From a virus (Duplodnaviria > Heunggongvirae > Uroviricota > Caudoviricetes), in the IMG/VR virus record IMGVR_UViG_2529292832_000020: a DNA stretch of 11,220 bases; one strand, written 5' to 3'. The translations under genes were made by a program, and so were the position numbers. The notes beneath the pieces are model-generated. The model worked only from the letters and a program-made list of their open reading frames with translations, made no database searches and was not told the DNA's origin. Positions within the stretch are counted from its first letter, which is position 1. Each line of letters begins with the position of its first letter. Below are positions 1,255 to 7,547 of the stretch, piece by piece.

Positions 1255-1368
1255 ATAAAACCGGGTGATGCAAAAGTAGCCATTTGATTCACAAGGCCAT
1301 TGACGCATCGCCCGGTTAGTTTTAACCTTGTCCACCGTGATTCACGTTCGTGAACATGTCCTTTCAGG

Positions 1369-1444
1369 GCCGATATAGCTCAGTTGGTAGAGCAGCGCAT
1401 TCGTAATGCGAAGGTCGTAGGTTCGACTCCTATTATCGGCACCA
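1369..1444 (+). tRNA. thrW: tRNA-Thr (anticodon CGU)
   Basis: 76-nt sequence GCCGATATAGCTCAGTTGGTAGAGCAGCGCATTCGTAATGCGAAGGTCGTAGGTTCGACTCCTATTATCGGCACCA with D-loop AGCTCAGTTGGTAGAGC, T-loop GGTTCGACTCC and 3' CCA; anticodon loop TTCGTAA gives CGT. Sits immediately 3' of proA. Confidence 0.9.
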
Positions 1445-1458
1445 TTTAAATCAATAAG

Positions 1459-2622
1459 TTACACATCATTAGTACCTTCCTTATTTTTTGACTGGGACAA
1501 ATTTGGGACCGATGGGTTTAGGATCGAGTCTATTTGCCGTGCGTGTTCGGTAAGGTGATTAGGTGCAAGGTGAGCATATCGACGAACCATTTCGATAGAC
1601 TCCCAGCCTCCCATTTCCTGTAACACTGACAACGGGACTCCGGCTTGAACCAGCCAACTTGCCCATGTGTGTCTCAAGTCGTGAAATCTGAAATCATCAA
1701 TACCAGCCCGTCTCAGCGCCGCTTTCCAGGCTGTGTTTGCGTCATACCGCATCTTCCTGACTGTTGGCGCTTTCGTTCCGTCTGGTTTGGTACAGCTTTC
1801 CTTGTACACAAATACCCAACGGTGATGATTCCCGATTTGTTTTTTCAATACGCGACATGCAGTATCATTCAGCGCAACGCCAATTGCGCGGTTTGATTTA
1901 CTCTCTTCCGGGTTTATCCATGCCACCCGGCGCTGCATATCTATTTGTTGCCATTCAAGGTTGATGATGTTCGAGCGTCTTAGGCCTGTTGCCAGTGCAA
2001 ATTCAACAACAGACTTTAATGGCTCCGGACATTCATCAATCAGCCTTTGTGCTTCATGGGGCTCCAGCCAGCGGATCCGTTTATTCTTTGGTTGGGGCAC
2101 TTTAATAATTGGTGCCTTATCCAGCATTTTCCATTCACGCTCTGCGGCTCTTAGTAGGGCCTTTATAAATGAAAGATGCGTAGCCTTCGTTGCAACGGAC
2201 GCTGGTTTTGGCGTGTATTCTGGAACAGGTTTCCCTTTTTTTCTGCATGCTTCTGCCCTGAGTTTCCAGTTTTCCTCATGACGCCGGTTCGTCATTTTCT
2301 GCATTGCTGAATAAATTTTTGATTCAGTAATGTCTCTTAGTTGCATTCCTGCGAAATGTTGAAGCCAGAATCCGATCCGGCTTTTGTCATCGTCCAGTGA
2401 TTTTTTATGTGCTTTCTCTTCAAGCCACCTGACACACGCTTCCTCGAACGTTATATCAGGTATTTCACCAAGTTTGCTGACCCGCCATGCTTCAGCCTTT
2501 AGCTTGTCATGGAGTTCTGTCGCCTGCCTTTTGTCCTTTGTTCCAAGAGACTGTTTAAATCTTTTACCGTTCGGCAATGTGAAACTGGCGTACCATATTT
2601 CACCTCTGCGGAAGAGTGACAT
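1459..2622 (-). CDS. int: tyrosine-recombinase phage integrase (P22-type Int)
   Basis: 387-aa ORF, ATG at 2620-2622 with AGGAA Shine-Dalgarno upstream. N-terminus [33 protein letters not shown] matches my memory of P22-family Int; C-terminal RHTWAS...VRRYAHL is the catalytic R/H-x-x-R/Y region. Stop codon lies 15 nt from the tRNA 3' end. Confidence 0.9.
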
Positions 2623-2849
2623 TTTCTTTCCTCTGTTATGCCATCACCCGCGCTCACCTGGACAGTATGCAGCGGAGACTGAAGAGCCGCAATGCAGGCT
2701 TGTCGTGTTGTGAGGTAAGGAGATTTATTCTTAGTGGGATCTTTGCGTGTTGCCTGAAGACGCCCTGTGCGTATCCAGTTAATGGCAGTCGGTCTGGATA
2801 TCTTGAGAAAATGACAGGCCTCATCGAGTGTGAGGCTGTATGGCTCCAT
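2499..2849 (-). CDS. xis: excisionase (P22-type Xis), about 116 aa
   Basis: Started from the internal ATG at 2847-2849 ([36 protein letters not shown]...), not the track's longer 144-aa version. This ATG shares one base with the upstream gene's stop (TAATG). The 3' end overlaps the int start. Recognised as a P22-like Xis from memory. Confidence 0.7.
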
Positions 2850-3154
2850 TATTTCACCTCTTGCTGTGACATTGTTGAAAAATGGATACCAGCTCGTTGC
2901 TGCCAGACGATCCAACCGAGAGTCATATCCCATGCCATGTATTCGTTATCGCCGTTTTTTGCTCTCCGACGATCTACTAAGTCACCGAAACGCTTTTCCA
3001 TGAATAATTCATAAGCTTCGCGTTCATCTGGTTCTACTTCCAGAGATAGGAGTGCGATTTCATAAGCACGGCGCTCAATATCGTCTCGCACGTCAAGGCT
3101 GCTGATACGCTCTTTAATTTCTTTAATCAGTTCTTTGTCGGTAAAAGTGGTCAT
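2849..3154 (-). CDS. hypothetical phage early protein (YfdT-like, 101 aa)
   Basis: ATG at 3152-3154 overlapping the upstream stop (TAATG). Length and position match my recollection of yfdT next to the excisionase in KplE1/CPS-53; no function inferable from the sequence. Confidence 0.55.
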   Translation of the reverse strand: MTTFTDKELIKEIKERISSLDVRDDIERRAYEIALLSLEVEPDEREAYELFMEKRFGDLVDRRRAKNGDNEYMAWDMTLGWIVWQQRAGIHFSTMSQQEVK

Positions 3155-3516
3155 TATGCTCCAGCCTCCGGTGCTTTTGGCATTACTGCCCAGTGAGTGA
3201 TATTGACGTTTTCAAGGTCCCCGACCTGAAATGTCCACTGCCATTCTCCGGTTTCTTTTTGTCCCCAGGTGTACCAGAGAGAACGCCAGCCAATTAGCCA
3301 GCCTTCTCCGTTAGCATCGAATAACAAAACACTTTCATTTGCTGGTGGCAGTTCAGTTGACACTGGTATTACTTTGTTTTCCTGTGCTGCACATTTAGCT
3401 TCAAGCGCATCGAATTTACGCACTAGGTATTCAGCATCTGTTTCATTTACTTTCAGATCTCGCGGTACACATCTCCCACGAAGAAACCCTTCCATTTCGA
3501 AAACATTCATGCGCAT
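3154..3516 (-). CDS. DUF551-like phage protein (YfdS-like, about 118-120 aa)
   Basis: ORF with Trp-rich core and a C-terminal ...ITHWAVMPKAPE resembling the THWMPLP signature I associate with DUF551. ATG at 3514-3516; an alternative ATG at 3508-3510 forms an ATGA overlap with the upstream stop. Confidence 0.55.
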   Translation of the reverse strand: MRMNVFEMEGFLRGRCVPRDLKVNETDAEYLVRKFDALEAKCAAQENKVIPVSTELPPANESVLLFDANGEGWLIGWRSLWYTWGQKETGEWQWTFQVGDLENVNITHWAVMPKAPEAGA

Positions 3517-4043
3517 TTGCGTAACTCCGATAACTCGTTAAAGCGTTCCATAAACATCCCGTAGGCATGGCCCGGTGCCAGTGGAATCACGTTGAACATC
3601 TCTGTTGCCGGGATACCTTCCAGTACAGGCCAGAAAGAGCCATCATCAAGCCCGAGATCGCGGCGTTCGGTTGCCAGCATGATGAGATCGGCATATTTCA
3701 CGGGCGTACTCATAACTGGGGGTAACCCGTATTTCTCACGGATTACGGCGTCTATTTTTTCTTCCATTTGTTTATAGTCAGGAAGAAGGCGTTTCAGTGG
3801 TGCGGGAATGTCCTGGCAATACGCTTCTGTTGCATCATGCATTAACGCTTCAAAAGCAAATTCCTGCGGCACCAGCTGGCTGCAAAGAACCGCATGTTGG
3901 GCGACGCTGTAGAAGTGCGAAAGATGACCGGCAAAGCGACAGATATTTGAAAGGGAAACCGCGATATCGTTAATATCGATGTCGTCTTTATTTATCTTGT
4001 CATAATAAAAATGCTTCCCGGAAAAAGTTTTAATAAATGACAT
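3507..4043 (-). CDS. HD-domain phosphohydrolase, probable 5'-deoxynucleotidase (YfdR-like, 178 aa)
   Basis: The track ORF starts at a GTG (4070); I place the start at the ATG at 4041-4043, preceded by GGAG 6 nt upstream. HD-domain residues are visible (VAQHAV..., ...LMHDATEAY). Matches the length I recall for K-12 YfdR. Confidence 0.78.
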   Translation of the reverse strand: MSFIKTFSGKHFYYDKINKDDIDINDIAVSLSNICRFAGHLSHFYSVAQHAVLCSQLVPQEFAFEALMHDATEAYCQDIPAPLKRLLPDYKQMEEKIDAVIREKYGLPPVMSTPVKYADLIMLATERRDLGLDDGSFWPVLEGIPATEMFNVIPLAPGHAYGMFMERFNELSELRKCA

Positions 4044-4170
4044 TTTGTTCTCCACGTATATGCGCTGCACCGCGCTGAATTCTGGTAAAAAGAATCCCTC
4101 ACCATCCGGCGATTATTGAGTAAATTACGTTTCCATAAATGCCCCCGCAGGGGCATTTGCAGTAATGAAA

Positions 4171-4995
4171 TCAGGCGGTGAAAGTACCAATAAAGGTTTC
4201 TACTTTGCTGTCCTTGAATTTCTCAACAAGCAGATCACGAAATTCGTTAGCCATTTCTTCCTGCACCGCCTCCAGCTGAATAATGCGCAGAACCAGTACA
4301 GGACGATCGCCAGTGATAATACTGAGGCGTAATTTAAACGGACGTTCTTTCAGACCTTCAAACGGAACGCATTTAAATTCAAATGCCACTGGCATAATGT
4401 CTTTGGTCTTCGCTTCGACAGACTCCATCAGGGAGCGTTTGCCGCTGAAGTCATTATCTTCAAAATCAGCGGTCTGGTTTGCTTCAATCGTGATTTTACG
4501 GACAGCCGCAGCCGCTTTTGTTGCCTGAATAGCGTCACCATTAGCATCAAAGCCCACAAGATAGTCGGCCCAGTCTTCAATCCATTCTGCTAGTGACTTC
4601 TGGGAGTTACGCTCGCCGTTAACAGACAACAGAGCAGAGAACGGTGCTGTCTTTTTCAGTTTGAGTGTGGCGGTGTTATCTGCGTGACCTGGTTCATCAA
4701 TAGTACCCAGGTTAAGCACACTGACGGCACGCATATTATCAGCATCGATAAAGCAGCGGGTGCCTTCATCTGCAAGATCTTTAGAATAACGGGTAAAGTC
4801 ATCGATGCTGGCAGTGGAAAGCGCACCACGGAAACGGAAGCGATTTAAATTAAATTTTTCCAGATCATGAATGCGGAAATTCTCAGGCAATGCCACAGCA
4901 TCGGCACCAATCTTACTGATAATTTCATTAACACCCTGAGCAGAAATAAGGGCATGGATTTGATTAATTGCGGTTGCGTCTAAGTTCTGAGACAT
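4171..4995 (-). CDS. DUF2303-family phage protein (YfdQ-like, 274 aa)
   Basis: 274-aa ORF, ATG at 4993-4995 with GAGGA Shine-Dalgarno. Length and sequence gestalt match K-12 YfdQ as I recall it; function unknown. Confidence 0.75.
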
Positions 4996-5060
4996 AATAA
5001 GTCCTCACTATATAAAGATATTCAGTGATGAGATAAATAATCAGTTAATTAAAAACGATA

Positions 5061-5423
5061 TTAACGACCTGCTGCGCGGAGTTTTCCGTCAGGTTCACCG
5101 GCAAGAGTCAGTAATTGTCCTTGGTCTTCCTGCAGAATAGTCAGGCGACCACCGCGATTGACATACATCGGCGTTTCGGTGGTGTCTTCTTCGGAAATTT
5201 TCCCGCGGTTAGTCGGGCGAACATATGAGAGTTTGTGTTTGATTTTCACTCGGTTCTCATCAAACGGTTCGATTTCCAGGTTGAGCGAGACCTTACCTTT
5301 GGTTTTCGTGTTCATCACACCGGAAGCGACTTCACTGAGAACTGCGCCGATTTTGGTTTCAAATACGCCGCCGTCCAGCTCCCCGATAAATGCCTGCACA
5401 TCAGTACTGCGTTCGCTAGCCAT
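5061..5423 (-). CDS. hypothetical phage early protein (YfdP-like, 120 aa)
   Basis: The track's 226-aa ORF has a Cys/Trp/Arg-rich non-protein-like N-terminal extension. I start at the internal ATG at 5421-5423 (MASERSTDVQAFIGELDGG...), which has a GAGGAG Shine-Dalgarno 7 nt upstream and gives 120 aa. Confidence 0.68.
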   Translation of the reverse strand: MASERSTDVQAFIGELDGGVFETKIGAVLSEVASGVMNTKTKGKVSLNLEIEPFDENRVKIKHKLSYVRPTNRGKISEEDTTETPMYVNRGGRLTILQEDQGQLLTLAGEPDGKLRAAGR

Positions 5424-5561
5424 TTTGCTGCTCCTCATCATATCGACCCTGCAAGGTCGGTTAGTTTCTCCACAAAACAGAGAAGAACACCTGCGGTGAC
5501 TGCCGCCCGGATGGATTGGGTTATGAGCCCGTCGTCCGGTGATGCTCTTCTCTGTTTTGTA

Positions 5562-5605
5562 AAAAGGACGGTACCAGCCGGAAGCAAGGGTACAAGCTGG
5601 TACCG
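5562..5605 (-). terminator. candidate intrinsic terminator or attenuator on the minus strand, upstream of the early-left operon
   Basis: On the minus strand, a 10-bp perfect stem (plus-strand CGGTACCAGC at 5569-5578 and GCTGGTACCG at 5596-5605) with a 17-nt loop is followed within 2 nt by UUUUU (plus-strand A-run 5561-5565). The large loop weakens the call. Confidence 0.35.
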
Positions 5606-5827
5606 CCAAGACTACACACAGCATAAAGTTGTGGTGCCGGGTGCCTCCCGGTGCCTGGCGAAGGTTGTACACCAGACGGGTGGGTATCCACAGAAGGTCG
5701 ACTGTCAGCCTCAACCTTAACCCGCGTGCGCTGAGCCGCATTCACCACAACGCTAAGGATTCTCTCTGGTTGAAAATACTTAGCTGTTATGTGCCTGCTT
5801 TTAGCCACATCAGGCGAGGTGGACCTG

Positions 5828-5866
5828 GTTATTCCCCAACAACAAGGATTCGGTATAATCTGGATA
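5828..5866 (+). promoter_or_regulatory. candidate promoter of the AT-rich insert operon (consensus -10 TATAAT, weak -35)
   Basis: Exact TATAAT at 5854-5859, about 30 nt upstream of the AGGAAGGA ribosome-binding site of micro-ORF A. No good -35 (ATTCCC/TTCCCC). Flanked by direct repeats CCCAACAACAAGG (5835-5847) and CCCAACAACAGG (5868-5879). Confidence 0.35.
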
Positions 5867-5891
5867 TCCCAACAACAGGTAGGAAGGAAAT

Positions 5892-5975
5892 ATGTACGTA
5901 GATAGCAATGAAAAATTTCATGTTCCGGTAAATCAGAGACCAGCACCGATCCCTGAGCCGAAACCTGAAATGTAA
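5892..5975 (+). CDS. micro-ORF A, 27-aa proline-rich peptide (MYVDSNEKFHVPVNQRPAPIPEPKPEM)
   Basis: ATG at 5892 preceded by AGGAAGGA; stop TAA at 5973-5975, 10 nt before the membrane-protein ATG. Paralogous to micro-ORFs B and C with synonymous codon differences. Too short for the supplied ORF track. Confidence 0.4.
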   Translation: MYVDSNEKFHVPVNQRPAPIPEPKPEM

Positions 5976-5985
5976 GGGAATAGAG

Positions 5986-6465
5986 ATGACTCGAGACGAT
6001 CTAGCATTCGATATTCATTATTCTTTCTTTCTTGAGAAAATGAATTACACCCTTTTAAATCGGATAGACAAGAGCATAACTCTTGTTCTCATTGTCTTGG
6101 GCTTTTCTGTTTTTGCGCCATATAGCAATATGTTTATTTTTGGCGCATCTGTAGCTATTTTGTCGGTGCTTCAATTGGTATACCAATTTGGGCAGGAAGC
6201 TGGCTTATCAAAGGAACAGATGCGACAGTATAAAAGGTTGATTGTTGAGTTTTCCTCCCTTTCTGATGACGAACTACGCACTCGGTTTTTAAAGGTTCAA
6301 GACGCTGATAGTAATCCATGGAGATCTTTACAAGATGCTGCGTTCAAACGGACCTGTATTGCGCTGGGACGTGTTGATGAGTCAGAAATATCATTCATGC
6401 ATAGCGTTATCGCATGGTTTGCTGGAGATTTGCCTCGGTCAAAAAGGTGTAATAATGACAAATAG
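5986..6465 (+). CDS. two-transmembrane membrane protein of unknown family (159 aa); candidate exclusion/defence effector
   Basis: ATG at 5986. Two hydrophobic helices (ITLVLIVLGFSVFAPY and MFIFGASVAILSVLQLVYQFG) separated by a 3-residue turn, then a charged soluble C-terminal region of about 95 aa. Opposite strand to all neighbouring phage genes, AT-rich, with its own -10 and terminator. Confidence 0.75.
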   Translation: MTRDDLAFDIHYSFFLEKMNYTLLNRIDKSITLVLIVLGFSVFAPYSNMFIFGASVAILSVLQLVYQFGQEAGLSKEQMRQYKRLIVEFSSLSDDELRTRFLKVQDADSNPWRSLQDAAFKRTCIALGRVDESEISFMHSVIAWFAGDLPRSKRCNNDK

Positions 6466-6571
6466 AATTCCCATAATCCCTAACCATGTACCTCCAAAGC
6501 CCAGACCACCATCACCAAAGTCACACAGGCTTTATGAGTATGAATTAATAATGGATTCTATATTGAGATGA
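6455..6571 (+). CDS. micro-ORF B, 38-aa proline-rich peptide (MTNRIPIIPNHVPPKPRPPSPKSHRLYEYELIMDSILR)
   Basis: ATG at 6455 with AAGGTG 5 nt upstream; overlaps the last 11 nt of the membrane-protein gene in another frame. Shares the HVP...PRPPSP core with A and C. Confidence 0.35.
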   Translation: MTNRIPIIPNHVPPKPRPPSPKSHRLYEYELIMDSILR

Positions 6572-6575
6572 CCAA

Positions 6576-6665
6576 ATGAATGCATTTATATATACATGGA
6601 AAGAGGATCATATACCCTTAAAACCTCGTCCTTCACCGCCAGAACCGAAGCCAAAATCCCGTTAA
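6576..6665 (+). CDS. micro-ORF C, 29-aa proline-rich peptide (MNAFIYTWKEDHIPLKPRPSPPEPKPKSR)
   Basis: ATG at 6576, 5 nt after the ORF B stop; stop TAA at 6663-6665, about 30 nt before the terminator. Core HIPLKPRPSPPEPKP aligns with A (HVPVNQRPAPIPEPKP) using different codons (R as CGT vs AGA; P, E, K synonymous changes). Confidence 0.35.
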   Translation: MNAFIYTWKEDHIPLKPRPSPPEPKPKSR

Positions 6666-6693
6666 GTGTTGGGGATCTCCAGATTGTTAAAGA

Positions 6694-6722
6694 GCGAAGC
6701 GTCCTATAGGGCGCTTTTTTGT
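6694..6722 (+). terminator. rho-independent terminator of the insert operon
   Basis: GC-rich hairpin GCGTCC-TATA-GGGCGC (6699-6714, one G-U pair) followed by TTTTTTGTT (6715-6723) on the plus strand, directly after micro-ORF C. Confidence 0.6.
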
Positions 6723-6805
6723 TGCTAACGAATCATCCTGGACTTCATATGCCCCAGGCGGCTACTTCGTGGGCGTCCTGCCTGTTCGTTGTTTCGCTTG
6801 GGTAC

Positions 6806-6833
6806 ATTATGTATCTCAAAGGTACATTGTCAA
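6806..6833 (-). promoter_or_regulatory. candidate leftward early promoter (PL-like) with an operator-like palindrome in the spacer
   Basis: Minus strand reads TTGACA (plus 6828-6833), a 16-nt spacer, then CATAAT (plus 6806-6811). The spacer contains ATGTAC-N7-ATACAT (plus 6809-6827), one mismatch from the OR palindromes. Lies immediately downstream of the repressor terminator. Confidence 0.45.
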
Positions 6834-6834
6834 G

Positions 6835-6860
6835 TATAAAAAAACCTGCCGAAGCAGGTT
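6835..6860 (-). terminator. rho-independent terminator of the repressor gene
   Basis: On the minus strand, 13 nt after the repressor stop: 7-bp stem AACCTGC/GCAGGTT (plus 6843-6849 and 6854-6860) with 4-nt loop, followed by UUUUUUUA (plus-strand A-run 6836-6842). Confidence 0.55.
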
Positions 6861-6872
6861 CATAAACATTGA

Positions 6873-7547
6873 TTAGGCTTTGATTTTGTATCTTCTTGGT
6901 TTTCCTGAGAAAATCACTGTACCAATTATAGAGCAATTACCGTTGATCTTAATGTAAGGCTCAGGCCAGTTTGGGTTTAACGCTTTGAGATAACGCTGTG
7001 TCCCATCTTCTATCAACCTTTTGAAGGTGGTTTCACCTGTATCGTGCATCAATGCAATAACGTCGTCACCGTGGCAGGCAGGTACTTCAGGATCGACAAA
7101 AATCATGTCTCCCGGGCGGTACTCATCAATCATTGAATCACCTATCACCCGCAAGATATAAGTCATTTCCCCACAGGGTACAGGGCAGGGATACGTTTCT
7201 GCTGTGCTCAAATCAACCTCAGAATATCCAACTTCTTTCCATGCTCCGGCCTGTACCCATGATATGACAGGGACTAATGTGATTTGTTTATTAGTGATTG
7301 AAACATCAGGTTTTTTTGTGATGTTCGTTGTCTGGTGTTCTTGATCGAGCCATCCGACAGGCAGGTCGAAACATTTTTCGATGTGTCGTGCCATGCTGTC
7401 ACCGATATTTTTAGTAGCACCATCTCCCATAAACCTGCTGGTCTGGGTTGGCTCGCGATCAATCATAGTGGCAAAGGAAGAATTCCCGCCAACACCATCT
7501 CTCAGTTTTCTGGCGTTAGACCGCCGGATGTCATGGATTGTTTTCAT
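6873..7547 (-). CDS. CI/C2-type prophage repressor (N-terminal DNA-binding domain plus C-terminal S24 LexA-like peptidase domain)
   Basis: 224-aa ORF, ATG at 7545-7547 with no Shine-Dalgarno (consistent with a leaderless transcript, as for lambda cI from PRM). S24 motifs are visible (ILRVIGDSM with catalytic Ser; Lys in ...TFKRLIEDG...). The C-terminal ...LNPNWPEPYIKINGNCSIIG resembles P22 C2 as I recall it. Confidence 0.88.
   Translation of the reverse strand: MKTIHDIRRSNARKLRDGVGGNSSFATMIDREPTQTSRFMGDGATKNIGDSMARHIEKCFDLPVGWLDQEHQTTNITKKPDVSITNKQITLVPVISWVQAGAWKEVGYSEVDLSTAETYPCPVPCGEMTYILRVIGDSMIDEYRPGDMIFVDPEVPACHGDDVIALMHDTGETTFKRLIEDGTQRYLKALNPNWPEPYIKINGNCSIIGTVIFSGKPRRYKIKA

Follow-up and report, generated by a model that had tools for sequence, protein, structure and literature searches.

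In the Qin prophage of Escherichia coli K-12, the small RNA (sRNA) DicF is derived from the repressor-controlled dicBp transcript, and its 3' end has two origins: intrinsic termination, which gives 53 nt, and cleavage of read-through RNA by RNase III, which gives 72 nt (PMC5069750). The cleavage of the read-through RNA occurs 19 nt past the DicF terminator (PMC5069750; bioRxiv 10.1101/2023.04.14.536235). STnc100 and PasD are also prophage sRNAs, of a family described as Hfq associated, and the PasD RNAs are Hfq dependent and have been detected by RIL-seq (PMC8550237; bioRxiv 10.64898/2026.05.13.724894). The put RNA of phage HK022, in turn, is about 70 nt long, consists of two stem-loops, and lies upstream of the terminators that it suppresses (PMC9378689). 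Here we describe a 467-bp stretch (positions 5424 to 5890) of IMG/VR virus record IMGVR_UViG_2529292832_000020, an 11,220-nt DNA referred to below as the window, which is a lambdoid prophage of the SfV/e14 type. The stretch constitutes the distal 470 nt of a leader of about 1.37 kb that extends from the early promoter PL to yfdP. It is non-coding and structured, is read on the minus strand, and is a string of RNA modules rather than one single leader element: in the direction of transcription, an STnc100-like RNA, a DicF-like terminator module, and a three-way junction just upstream of yfdP (Table 1).

The dicF locus of Qin and the locus studied here have much in common. In each case a lambdoid early operon under a cI-like repressor has a long untranslated leader, with an sRNA or sRNA-like RNA that ends in an intrinsic terminator; an STnc100-like RNA is present in the same leader; and a helix of about 20 bp begins a few nucleotides after the U-tract. 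The order of the elements is different, being DicF, STnc100-like RNA, and dicB in Qin and STnc100-like RNA, DicF-like terminator, three-way junction, and yfdP in the window, and Qin has no three-way junction. The unpaired seed in the window is also unlike that of DicF, and its targets need not be ftsZ, xylR, or pykA. In Qin (L163, 1133 to 1342, between dicF and dicB), the STnc100-like RNA has a closing helix of about 21 bp; this begins 8 nt beyond the U-tract of DicF and appears to be the RNase III site already described. Because the published cut falls within this helix, we infer a role of RNase III at the corresponding position in the window. The leader of a Stx2c phage, upstream of the terminator, is homologous to the Qin region that gives rise to a 190-nt DicF precursor. 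By analogy with dicF, an attenuator and an RNase III site, both of which had been listed as options when the stretch was annotated from its sequence alone (the first-pass annotation), are plausible here.

The minus-strand transcript of positions 5900 to 5410 folds with a z-score of -5.4, and the G+C content is 0.52 to 0.58 within positions 5400 to 5800 compared with 0.36 to 0.44 in the flanks, in agreement with the GC-rich character reported in the first-pass annotation. A repeat search recovered the inverted repeat described there (5472-5489/5543-5560, one mismatch) and extended the arms to 25 nt with 84% complementarity (5472-5496/5536-5560); the single mismatch in the 18-nt core reads as G.U in the minus-strand RNA and as C.A on the plus strand. 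The open reading frame (ORF) at 5521 to 5946 on the minus strand, which the first-pass annotation had dismissed, exists mechanically, and conservation is found in none of its frames.

A decayed protein-coding gene is a rival explanation, and annotation records can be cited for it. PGAP calls a frameshifted hypothetical protein at 5438 to 5748, the same call is made at L001 (5939 to 6249), at L003 (2939 to 3249), and in many E. coli genomes, and the records of SfIV and Kati lengthen yfdP to 226 amino acids. In addition, many copies have one open frame running through the junction (..ASPGDGLITQS..). However, among 25 diverse homologues the copies of 5560 to 5468 range from 92 to 120 nt and do not vary in multiples of 3; they have indels of 1, 2, 13, and 24 to 27 nt inside stem P3 of the junction and stops in every frame, so that the conserved protein-coding gene that was to refute the RNA reading is not found. 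Substitutions compensate one another so as to keep RNA pairing, Arg, Cys, and Trp are abundant in the translated peptides, and the annotators disagree on strand, frame, and start, other records placing small ORFs on either strand. Any ORF that crosses the conserved RNA core reads ...DGLITQS.... Spurious ORFs with this translated core in common probably gave rise to the database proteins behind the PGAP pseudogene call, which would make the call an artefact. We therefore regard a decayed gene as very improbable.

The terminator of the stretch is conserved. The terminator-like hairpin at 5569 to 5605 with its U-tract, already recognized in the first-pass annotation, has a perfect 10-bp core (5605-5596/5578-5569), extended to 13 pairs when folded, with a free energy (dG) of -23 kcal/mol and a z-score of -5.1. 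It is a GC-rich hairpin followed by a U-tract on the transcribed strand; a simple terminator scan misses it, as its loop is longer than 8 nt. All 25 diverse homologues retain it (median hairpin dG of -21, 1 to 5 nt before U5-7), with stem sequences that covary, and the arrangement of single strand, GC-rich hairpin, and U5-7 recurs in approximately 25 enterobacterial species and more than 100 viral contigs. Within the single strand, GCUGUGUGUAGUC(U/A)UUGG is conserved across genera, is predicted to be unpaired, and aligns with the 5' part of DicF. The terminator module and DicF share the block UUUGGCGGUAYCAGUUU...CCGCCCUUUUU, and the layout of DicF (about 53 nt, an unpaired 5' part followed by a terminator hairpin and U-tract, in the leader of a repressor-controlled lambdoid early operon) is found here as well. 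In a number of loci (L013, L014, L023, L024, L029, L032, L033, L035 to L037, and L045) the terminator has a long form, with an inner hairpin and a conserved GAAGAUAAUGUUCUG in its loop, and some of these loops read as a Shine-Dalgarno-AUG mini-ORF, for example MKIVF*.

Upstream of the terminator, a permissive Rfam scan aligned positions 5781 to 5558 of the minus strand with the entire STnc100 model (RF02076, positions 1 to 206; 41.1 bits, E value of 4e-7). The alignment takes in UGGUGAAU, the conserved hairpin CACCGGGAGGCACCCGGCACCA (5653 to 5632), a closing helix formed by GUUGUGGUG (5751-5743) and CACCACAAC (5636-5628), and the terminator. An independent minimum-free-energy (MFE) fold reproduces the same architecture of long-range closing helix, inner hairpins, and 3' terminator, and the further stems that had been noted at 5620 to 5700 are the inner hairpins of this multi-branch RNA. 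Comparable sub-threshold matches are found in SfV (39.5 bits), in a Buttiauxella prophage (L015; 36.9 bits), and in K-12 Qin (34.4 bits). As judged by alignment and location in a prophage, the module at 5781 to 5606 is a distant relative of STnc100/PasD and not a member by the Rfam criterion. It lies in an early-left leader, whereas the canonical STnc100 of a Stx2c phage (149.5 bits) lies in the late operon after stx2, where the junction is not next to it; that phage also carries the leader described here. On these comparisons, the terminator module (5627 to 5562) and the STnc100-like RNA are divergent relatives of known kinds of prophage sRNA, and the suggestion of a prophage small RNA made for this stretch is one that fits.

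In three other loci the same terminator is directly preceded by a tRNA or tRNA-like gene in place of the STnc100-like RNA (L025, 2222 to 2300; L030, 1186 to 1264; L134, 1077 to 1203). The acceptor stem of the tRNA-like gene in L134, GUUGUGG/CCACAAC, is identical to the closing helix of the STnc100-like RNA in the window, which hints that this sRNA family was derived from tRNA. Just upstream of the sRNA-like RNA is a small hairpin (Table 1) whose motif recurs in L013, L022, and L032 and twice in L026, beside divergently transcribed genes; a promoter region and a module boundary or linker are possible roles.

The three-way junction that follows the terminator is well supported. The minus-strand RNA of 5562 to 5468 folds at -47.8 kcal/mol with a z-score of -8.2. 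In 20 diverse sequences pairing is kept in 93.8% of cells, compared with at most 54% when the partners are slid, and compensatory changes occur in 13 of the 32 pairs, a number reached by none of 500 shuffles. Compensatory changes across homologous prophages, the check proposed with the first-pass annotation, are thus present, with the minus-strand RNA as the selected molecule. A joint MAFFT/RNAalifold alignment misaligned the 3' halves of long and short forms of the junction, and the analysis was therefore confined to the long form, short copies being examined visually and with a covariance model (R1). A search of Rfam 15 gave no match to the junction at E values up to 10, and searches of the literature (on yfdP and on structured RNA of lambdoid late operons) turned up no description of the motif. 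As far as these sources show, the junction appears to be an undescribed, widespread, and well-supported RNA motif.

The elements flanking the junction are conserved as well. The GGAGAAACUAAC box after P1 is kept in all main-class copies and also in L015, L035, and L037, which are without the junction, and its pairing with the terminator U-tract is present in the MFE fold. The small hairpin before the yfdP ribosome-binding site has a different sequence, CGGCGGUGGCAGCCGCC, in other genera with the same fold.

The dyad symmetry might instead operate in DNA, as a protein-binding palindrome, a cruciform, a recombination linker of mosaic modules, or a small inverted-repeat mobile element. Mosaic boundaries do occur at 5609/5610, 5823, and 5877, the first of them at the top of the terminator hairpin, and the same modules are shuffled between phages. 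But the stems of the junction contain approximately 19 G.U or U.G pairs in the minus-strand sense and no A.C pairs, and R1 scores approximately 100 bits in the sense and approximately 40 bits in the antisense orientation, the values for the element at 5472 to 5560 being 108 and 41 bits. Because the tolerated mismatches are those of the minus-strand RNA, selection is at the RNA level and is strand specific. The orientation of the junction is also always that of the operon. We give a DNA-level function hardly any weight.

The junction was found in more than 100 phage contigs. In 124 of the 128 copies with enough flanking sequence it is within 45 nt of a T-run, and in 25 of 25 representatives a terminator adjoins it. 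The downstream gene is yfdP in 97 copies, an RdgC-like gene in 16, and a YfdR-like gene in 8. A short form, with the same apex and a P1 of only 6 to 7 bp, is located between Q antiterminator and holin genes; these Q genes belong to three Pfam families (PF03589, PF06530, and PF06323). In most late loci the short form follows a tR'-like terminator, which is degenerate in L142. L129 carries both, a long form in the early-left leader and a short form in the late leader, in divergent orientation, and in L119 the junction is located approximately 30 nt after a PL-like promoter with no terminator between. Since it occurs in early-left and late positions, before various first genes, and beside three Q families, the junction is, to judge from its placement, a general head-of-operon element for lytic transcripts, whichever gene comes first and whichever antiterminator family is present.

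The distance between PL and these modules is larger than previously assumed. The first-pass annotation had placed the stretch directly after PL; this is incorrect, as PL is 1.2 kb away, with a plus-strand moron in between. Because the moron lies between PL and the stretch, PL transcripts cross it in antisense. Approximately 80 to 115 nt after PL there is a nut-like site, with the boxA 13-mer (CGCUCUUUAACAA) occurring exactly once in the window. The same hairpin and boxA are found in the same orientation in L014, L029, L058, and L062, including Mangrovibacter and prophages with other immunity regions. An exact consensus boxA approximately 100 nt after PL with an adjacent hairpin is reminiscent of lambda nutL and of rrn operons. 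In contrast to lambda nutL, the hairpin precedes boxA, so that there is no lambda-type boxB, and no N-like arginine-rich gene follows. The order of hairpin and then boxA is that of rrn operons. The earlier statement that only RNA structure is present where N would be thus stands as far as the gene is concerned and is incomplete with respect to the PL transcript, which carries this hairpin and an exact boxA.

Other features of the PL transcript may be noted here. Its first 80 nt or so (6720 to 6800, minus strand; CGAACAGGCAGGACGCCCACGAAGUAGCCGCCUGGGGCAUAUGAAGUCCAGGAUGA...) are conserved in L029 despite a different operator type, and a hairpin in this region covaries (CCUGG/CCAGG and CCGGU/ACCGG). 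Read on the plus strand, the hairpin at 6696 to 6717 is the terminator of the moron, and it may serve both directions.

We consider it somewhat more likely than not that the terminator produces an sRNA and throttles expression from yfdP to int, with the junction serving as an RNase III processing site on read-through RNA. Upon derepression, PL (6833-6806) would fire, and the hairpin and boxA RNA would load Nus factors, so that polymerase could escape Rho termination over the approximately 0.9 kb in which the RNA is untranslated and antisense to the moron. Most polymerases would stop at the terminator, at 5562 to 5566. Termination would yield an Hfq-type sRNA, which might stay full length or be shortened by RNase E to the 3' module that resembles DicF, and would at the same time keep the expression of yfdP-xis-int low. 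Since its first nucleotide is the last U of the terminator, the junction is present only in read-through RNA, and it is this read-through fraction that would fold into the three-way junction. RNase III would then cut P1 (18 bp, or approximately 23 bp with the U-tract:GGAGA pairing) and split the sRNA from the mRNA, which would keep a structured 5' end, as happens in Qin when RNase III cuts 19 nt beyond the terminator of DicF. In phage lambda, sib likewise folds into its structure only when transcription reads past a terminator, and the structure is then a substrate of RNase III. The difference is that sib acts on the upstream gene from its 3' side.

Several observations weigh against processing by RNase III and against the sRNA assignment. 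A P1 of 6 to 7 bp, as in the short late-operon form, is a poor substrate for RNase III, and because of this, cleavage by RNase III is not a function common to all copies. RNase III processing also leaves the invariant loop of the junction unexplained. The STnc100 match of 41.1 bits is below the gathering score of 47, and the match to the DicF model (RF00039; 19.4 bits, E value of 0.29, model positions 1 to 52) does not reach the gathering score of 48, K-12 DicF itself scoring 76.7 bits. A scan for sigma-70 consensus promoters found none for the sRNA-like RNA; CATAAC at 5791 to 5786 is at best a weak candidate. With respect to the passage of polymerase through the leader, no arginine-rich N-like ORF was found after boxA in the window, SfV, Kati, L014, or L062, PHROG searches returning only families of unknown function, and the PL leader of the Stx2c phage is without boxA although the junction is present.

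An alternative is processive antitermination in cis by the junction or by the STnc100-like RNA, in the manner of put, the nascent RNA binding its own polymerase against terminators or Rho. Like put, the element is a cis-encoded structured RNA with which an early operon of an N-less lambdoid phage opens; it heads both of the long lytic operons, early-left and late; the copy in L119 comes directly after the PL-like promoter, as putL does; and the two divergent copies in L129 are arranged like putL and putR. The absence of a detectable N gene can be read in the same way. On the other hand, put lies upstream of the terminators that it suppresses, whereas the junction is downstream of the terminator and so cannot act on it, and no convincing intrinsic terminator was found further on within yfdP-int (1300 to 5700). 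The late copies are beside Q genes, which already provide antitermination, and any second copy belongs to the late operon instead of following PR. The suggestion of an HK022 put-like RNA made in the first-pass annotation does not hold for the element itself: it is a 93-nt three-way junction behind a terminator, with three stems instead of two, 93 nt instead of approximately 70 nt, a distance of 1.2 kb from PL, no copy after cro, and no similarity to putL or putR in sequence or structure, and R1 is blank in HK022. We consider a put-like function quite unlikely. A likeness of the PL leader to putL/putR, with GUCCAGGAUGA in common, was taken as chance, the corresponding stretch in L029 being a covarying hairpin with a different sequence.

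Another RNA system was encountered in SfV and Stx2c-type relatives (L002, 7411 to 7599; L048; L059; L161, 9494 to 9682), which have an IsrK and C4 antisense pair in the rightward operon, a P1/P7-like immunity module. The C4/IsrK system was considered as a partner of the leader; it is absent from the window and is therefore not required.

The apex of the junction raises the possibility that it binds a protein, a ribosomal subunit, or a ligand, as a regulatory aptamer or a mimic of the initiator tRNA anticodon arm, or that it is a decoy for an anticodon nuclease. Such an element would control how the operon's first genes are translated, or their stability, and may coexist with processing. Fourteen nucleotides of the apex, CGGGCUCAUAACCC, are identical to positions 28 to 41 of tRNA-fMet, the sequence of which was verified against all E. 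coli genomes, and the apex is the most conserved part of the junction, whereas all stems covary. An architecture of this type, a three-way junction whose internal loops are conserved, is typical of aptamers. The 3' arm of P1 is rich in pyrimidines (CUUCUC), and the sequence itself shows it to be complementary to GAGGAG, the Shine-Dalgarno sequence of yfdP. Nevertheless, the downstream gene varies, and the distance to its start codon ranges from 35 to more than 100 nt; the loop is CUCAUUC in 5 of the 25 representatives and a different one in L036; and no partner complementary to the invariant loop exists elsewhere in the window. Identity of the junction as a tRNA-like element was rejected, as tRNA models of Rfam gave no match in 5350 to 6900 at E values up to 10 and ARAGORN likewise finds only tRNA-Thr (1369 to 1444) in the window; the sole likeness is the 14-nt anticodon arm. 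The metY-rimP-nusA-infB leader of the host is similar in layout, with an initiator tRNA gene, then terminators that can be seen in the sequence, and then mRNA, and derivation of the junction from it was also rejected, no likeness extending beyond the anticodon arm. An aptamer or mimic as the explanation of the junction is unlikely in our estimation.

The near-invariant apical loop probably binds a factor. A broader and tentative possibility, which we think has a small but real chance of being correct, is that the junction, with its copy of the initiator tRNA anticodon arm and its place at the head of both the early-left and the late (Q-dependent) operons, represents a new class of cis-acting phage leader RNA that engages the transcription or translation machinery directly and is more than a processing site. 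Under the same reservation, it might be a processivity or anti-Rho element unrelated to put, or a mimic that recruits or titrates a factor that binds tRNA-fMet.

The prophage is integrated at tRNA-Thr beside proA. PL follows directly after the cI terminator and is overlapped by two operators (6810 to 6826 and 6790 to 6806), the motif TGTAY-N7-GGTACA of which is present three more times between cI and cro. The insert at the moron slot varies among related phages. A likely promoter of the moron is the perfect TATAAT at 5853 to 5858 on the plus strand, upstream of the 27-codon ORF with a strong ribosome-binding site, and direct repeats CCCAACAAC(A)AGG are located on either side of this -10 element (5830 to 5890, plus strand). 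With a 1-kb query, the leader was matched in 2,869 of 5,426 complete E. coli genomes, about half, and it is also carried by Shigella serotype-converting phages and Stx2c phages. In CPS-53-type prophages (L012 and L019, of the K-12 type), tandem iteron-like repeats of the GACGG/TTTTGA type replace the leader approximately 230 nt upstream of yfdP.

Table 1. Positions of genes and RNA elements in the window
Feature	Coordinates	Strand or direction	Remarks
int	1459-2622	leftward	
yfdT/S/R/Q		leftward	genes between int and yfdP
yfdP	5061-5423	leftward	
yfdP start	5421-5436	minus	Shine-Dalgarno GAGGAG and AUG; opens early-left operon yfdP-Q-R-S-T-xis-int
Small GC hairpin before yfdP ribosome-binding site	5444-5459	minus	dG -8.5; covarying
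Conserved box GGAGAAACUAAC	5460-5471	minus	after P1; can pair with terminator U-tract, extending P1 by about 5 pairs
Three-way-junction leader RNA, 93 nt	5472-5560	minus	starts at last U of terminator
P1, 18 bp	5560-5543/5489-5472	minus	
P2	5539-5535/5511-5507	minus	bears near-invariant apex GACGGGCUCAUAACCCAAUCC (5533-5513)
P3	5506-5503/5496-5493	minus	
Intrinsic terminator	5559-5605	minus	13-bp GC-rich stem, 15-17-nt loop, U-tract UCCUUUUUAC
Conserved single strand UUUAUGCUGUGUGUAGUCUUGG	5606-5627	minus	before terminator; candidate seed of DicF-like sRNA
STnc100-like multi-hairpin RNA body	5606-5781	minus	Rfam RF02076 alignment; MFE fold
Hairpin GCCUG-AUGUGGCUAAAAG-CAGGC	5793-5815	minus	GCCUGAUGUGGNNAAAAGNCAGGC, preceded by CCACC; just upstream of sRNA-like RNA
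Moron	5892-6465	plus	27-codon ORF 5892-5975 and ORF 5986-6465 (phrog_6315, 159 amino acids)
nut-like site	6684-6716	minus	hairpin AAGCGCCCUAUAGGACGCUU (6716-6697), then exact boxA CGCUCUUUAACAA (6696-6684)
PL promoter TTGACA-16-CATAAT	6833-6806	minus	11 of 12 consensus matches; source of leftward transcription
cI terminator	6861-6842		
ymfK-type cI repressor	6873-7547		

Reading the stretch as RNA corrects the broken-gene annotation at NCBI and adds divergent DicF- and STnc100-type sRNA genes that are missed by Rfam thresholds. Many N-less lambdoid phages have an intrinsic terminator between PL and int/xis. In two lytic operons that are under different regulation, the junction comes right after the gate terminator, and it is beside three unrelated families of Q. 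This placement points to a general, previously unrecognized step in the way temperate phages handle read-through transcripts.

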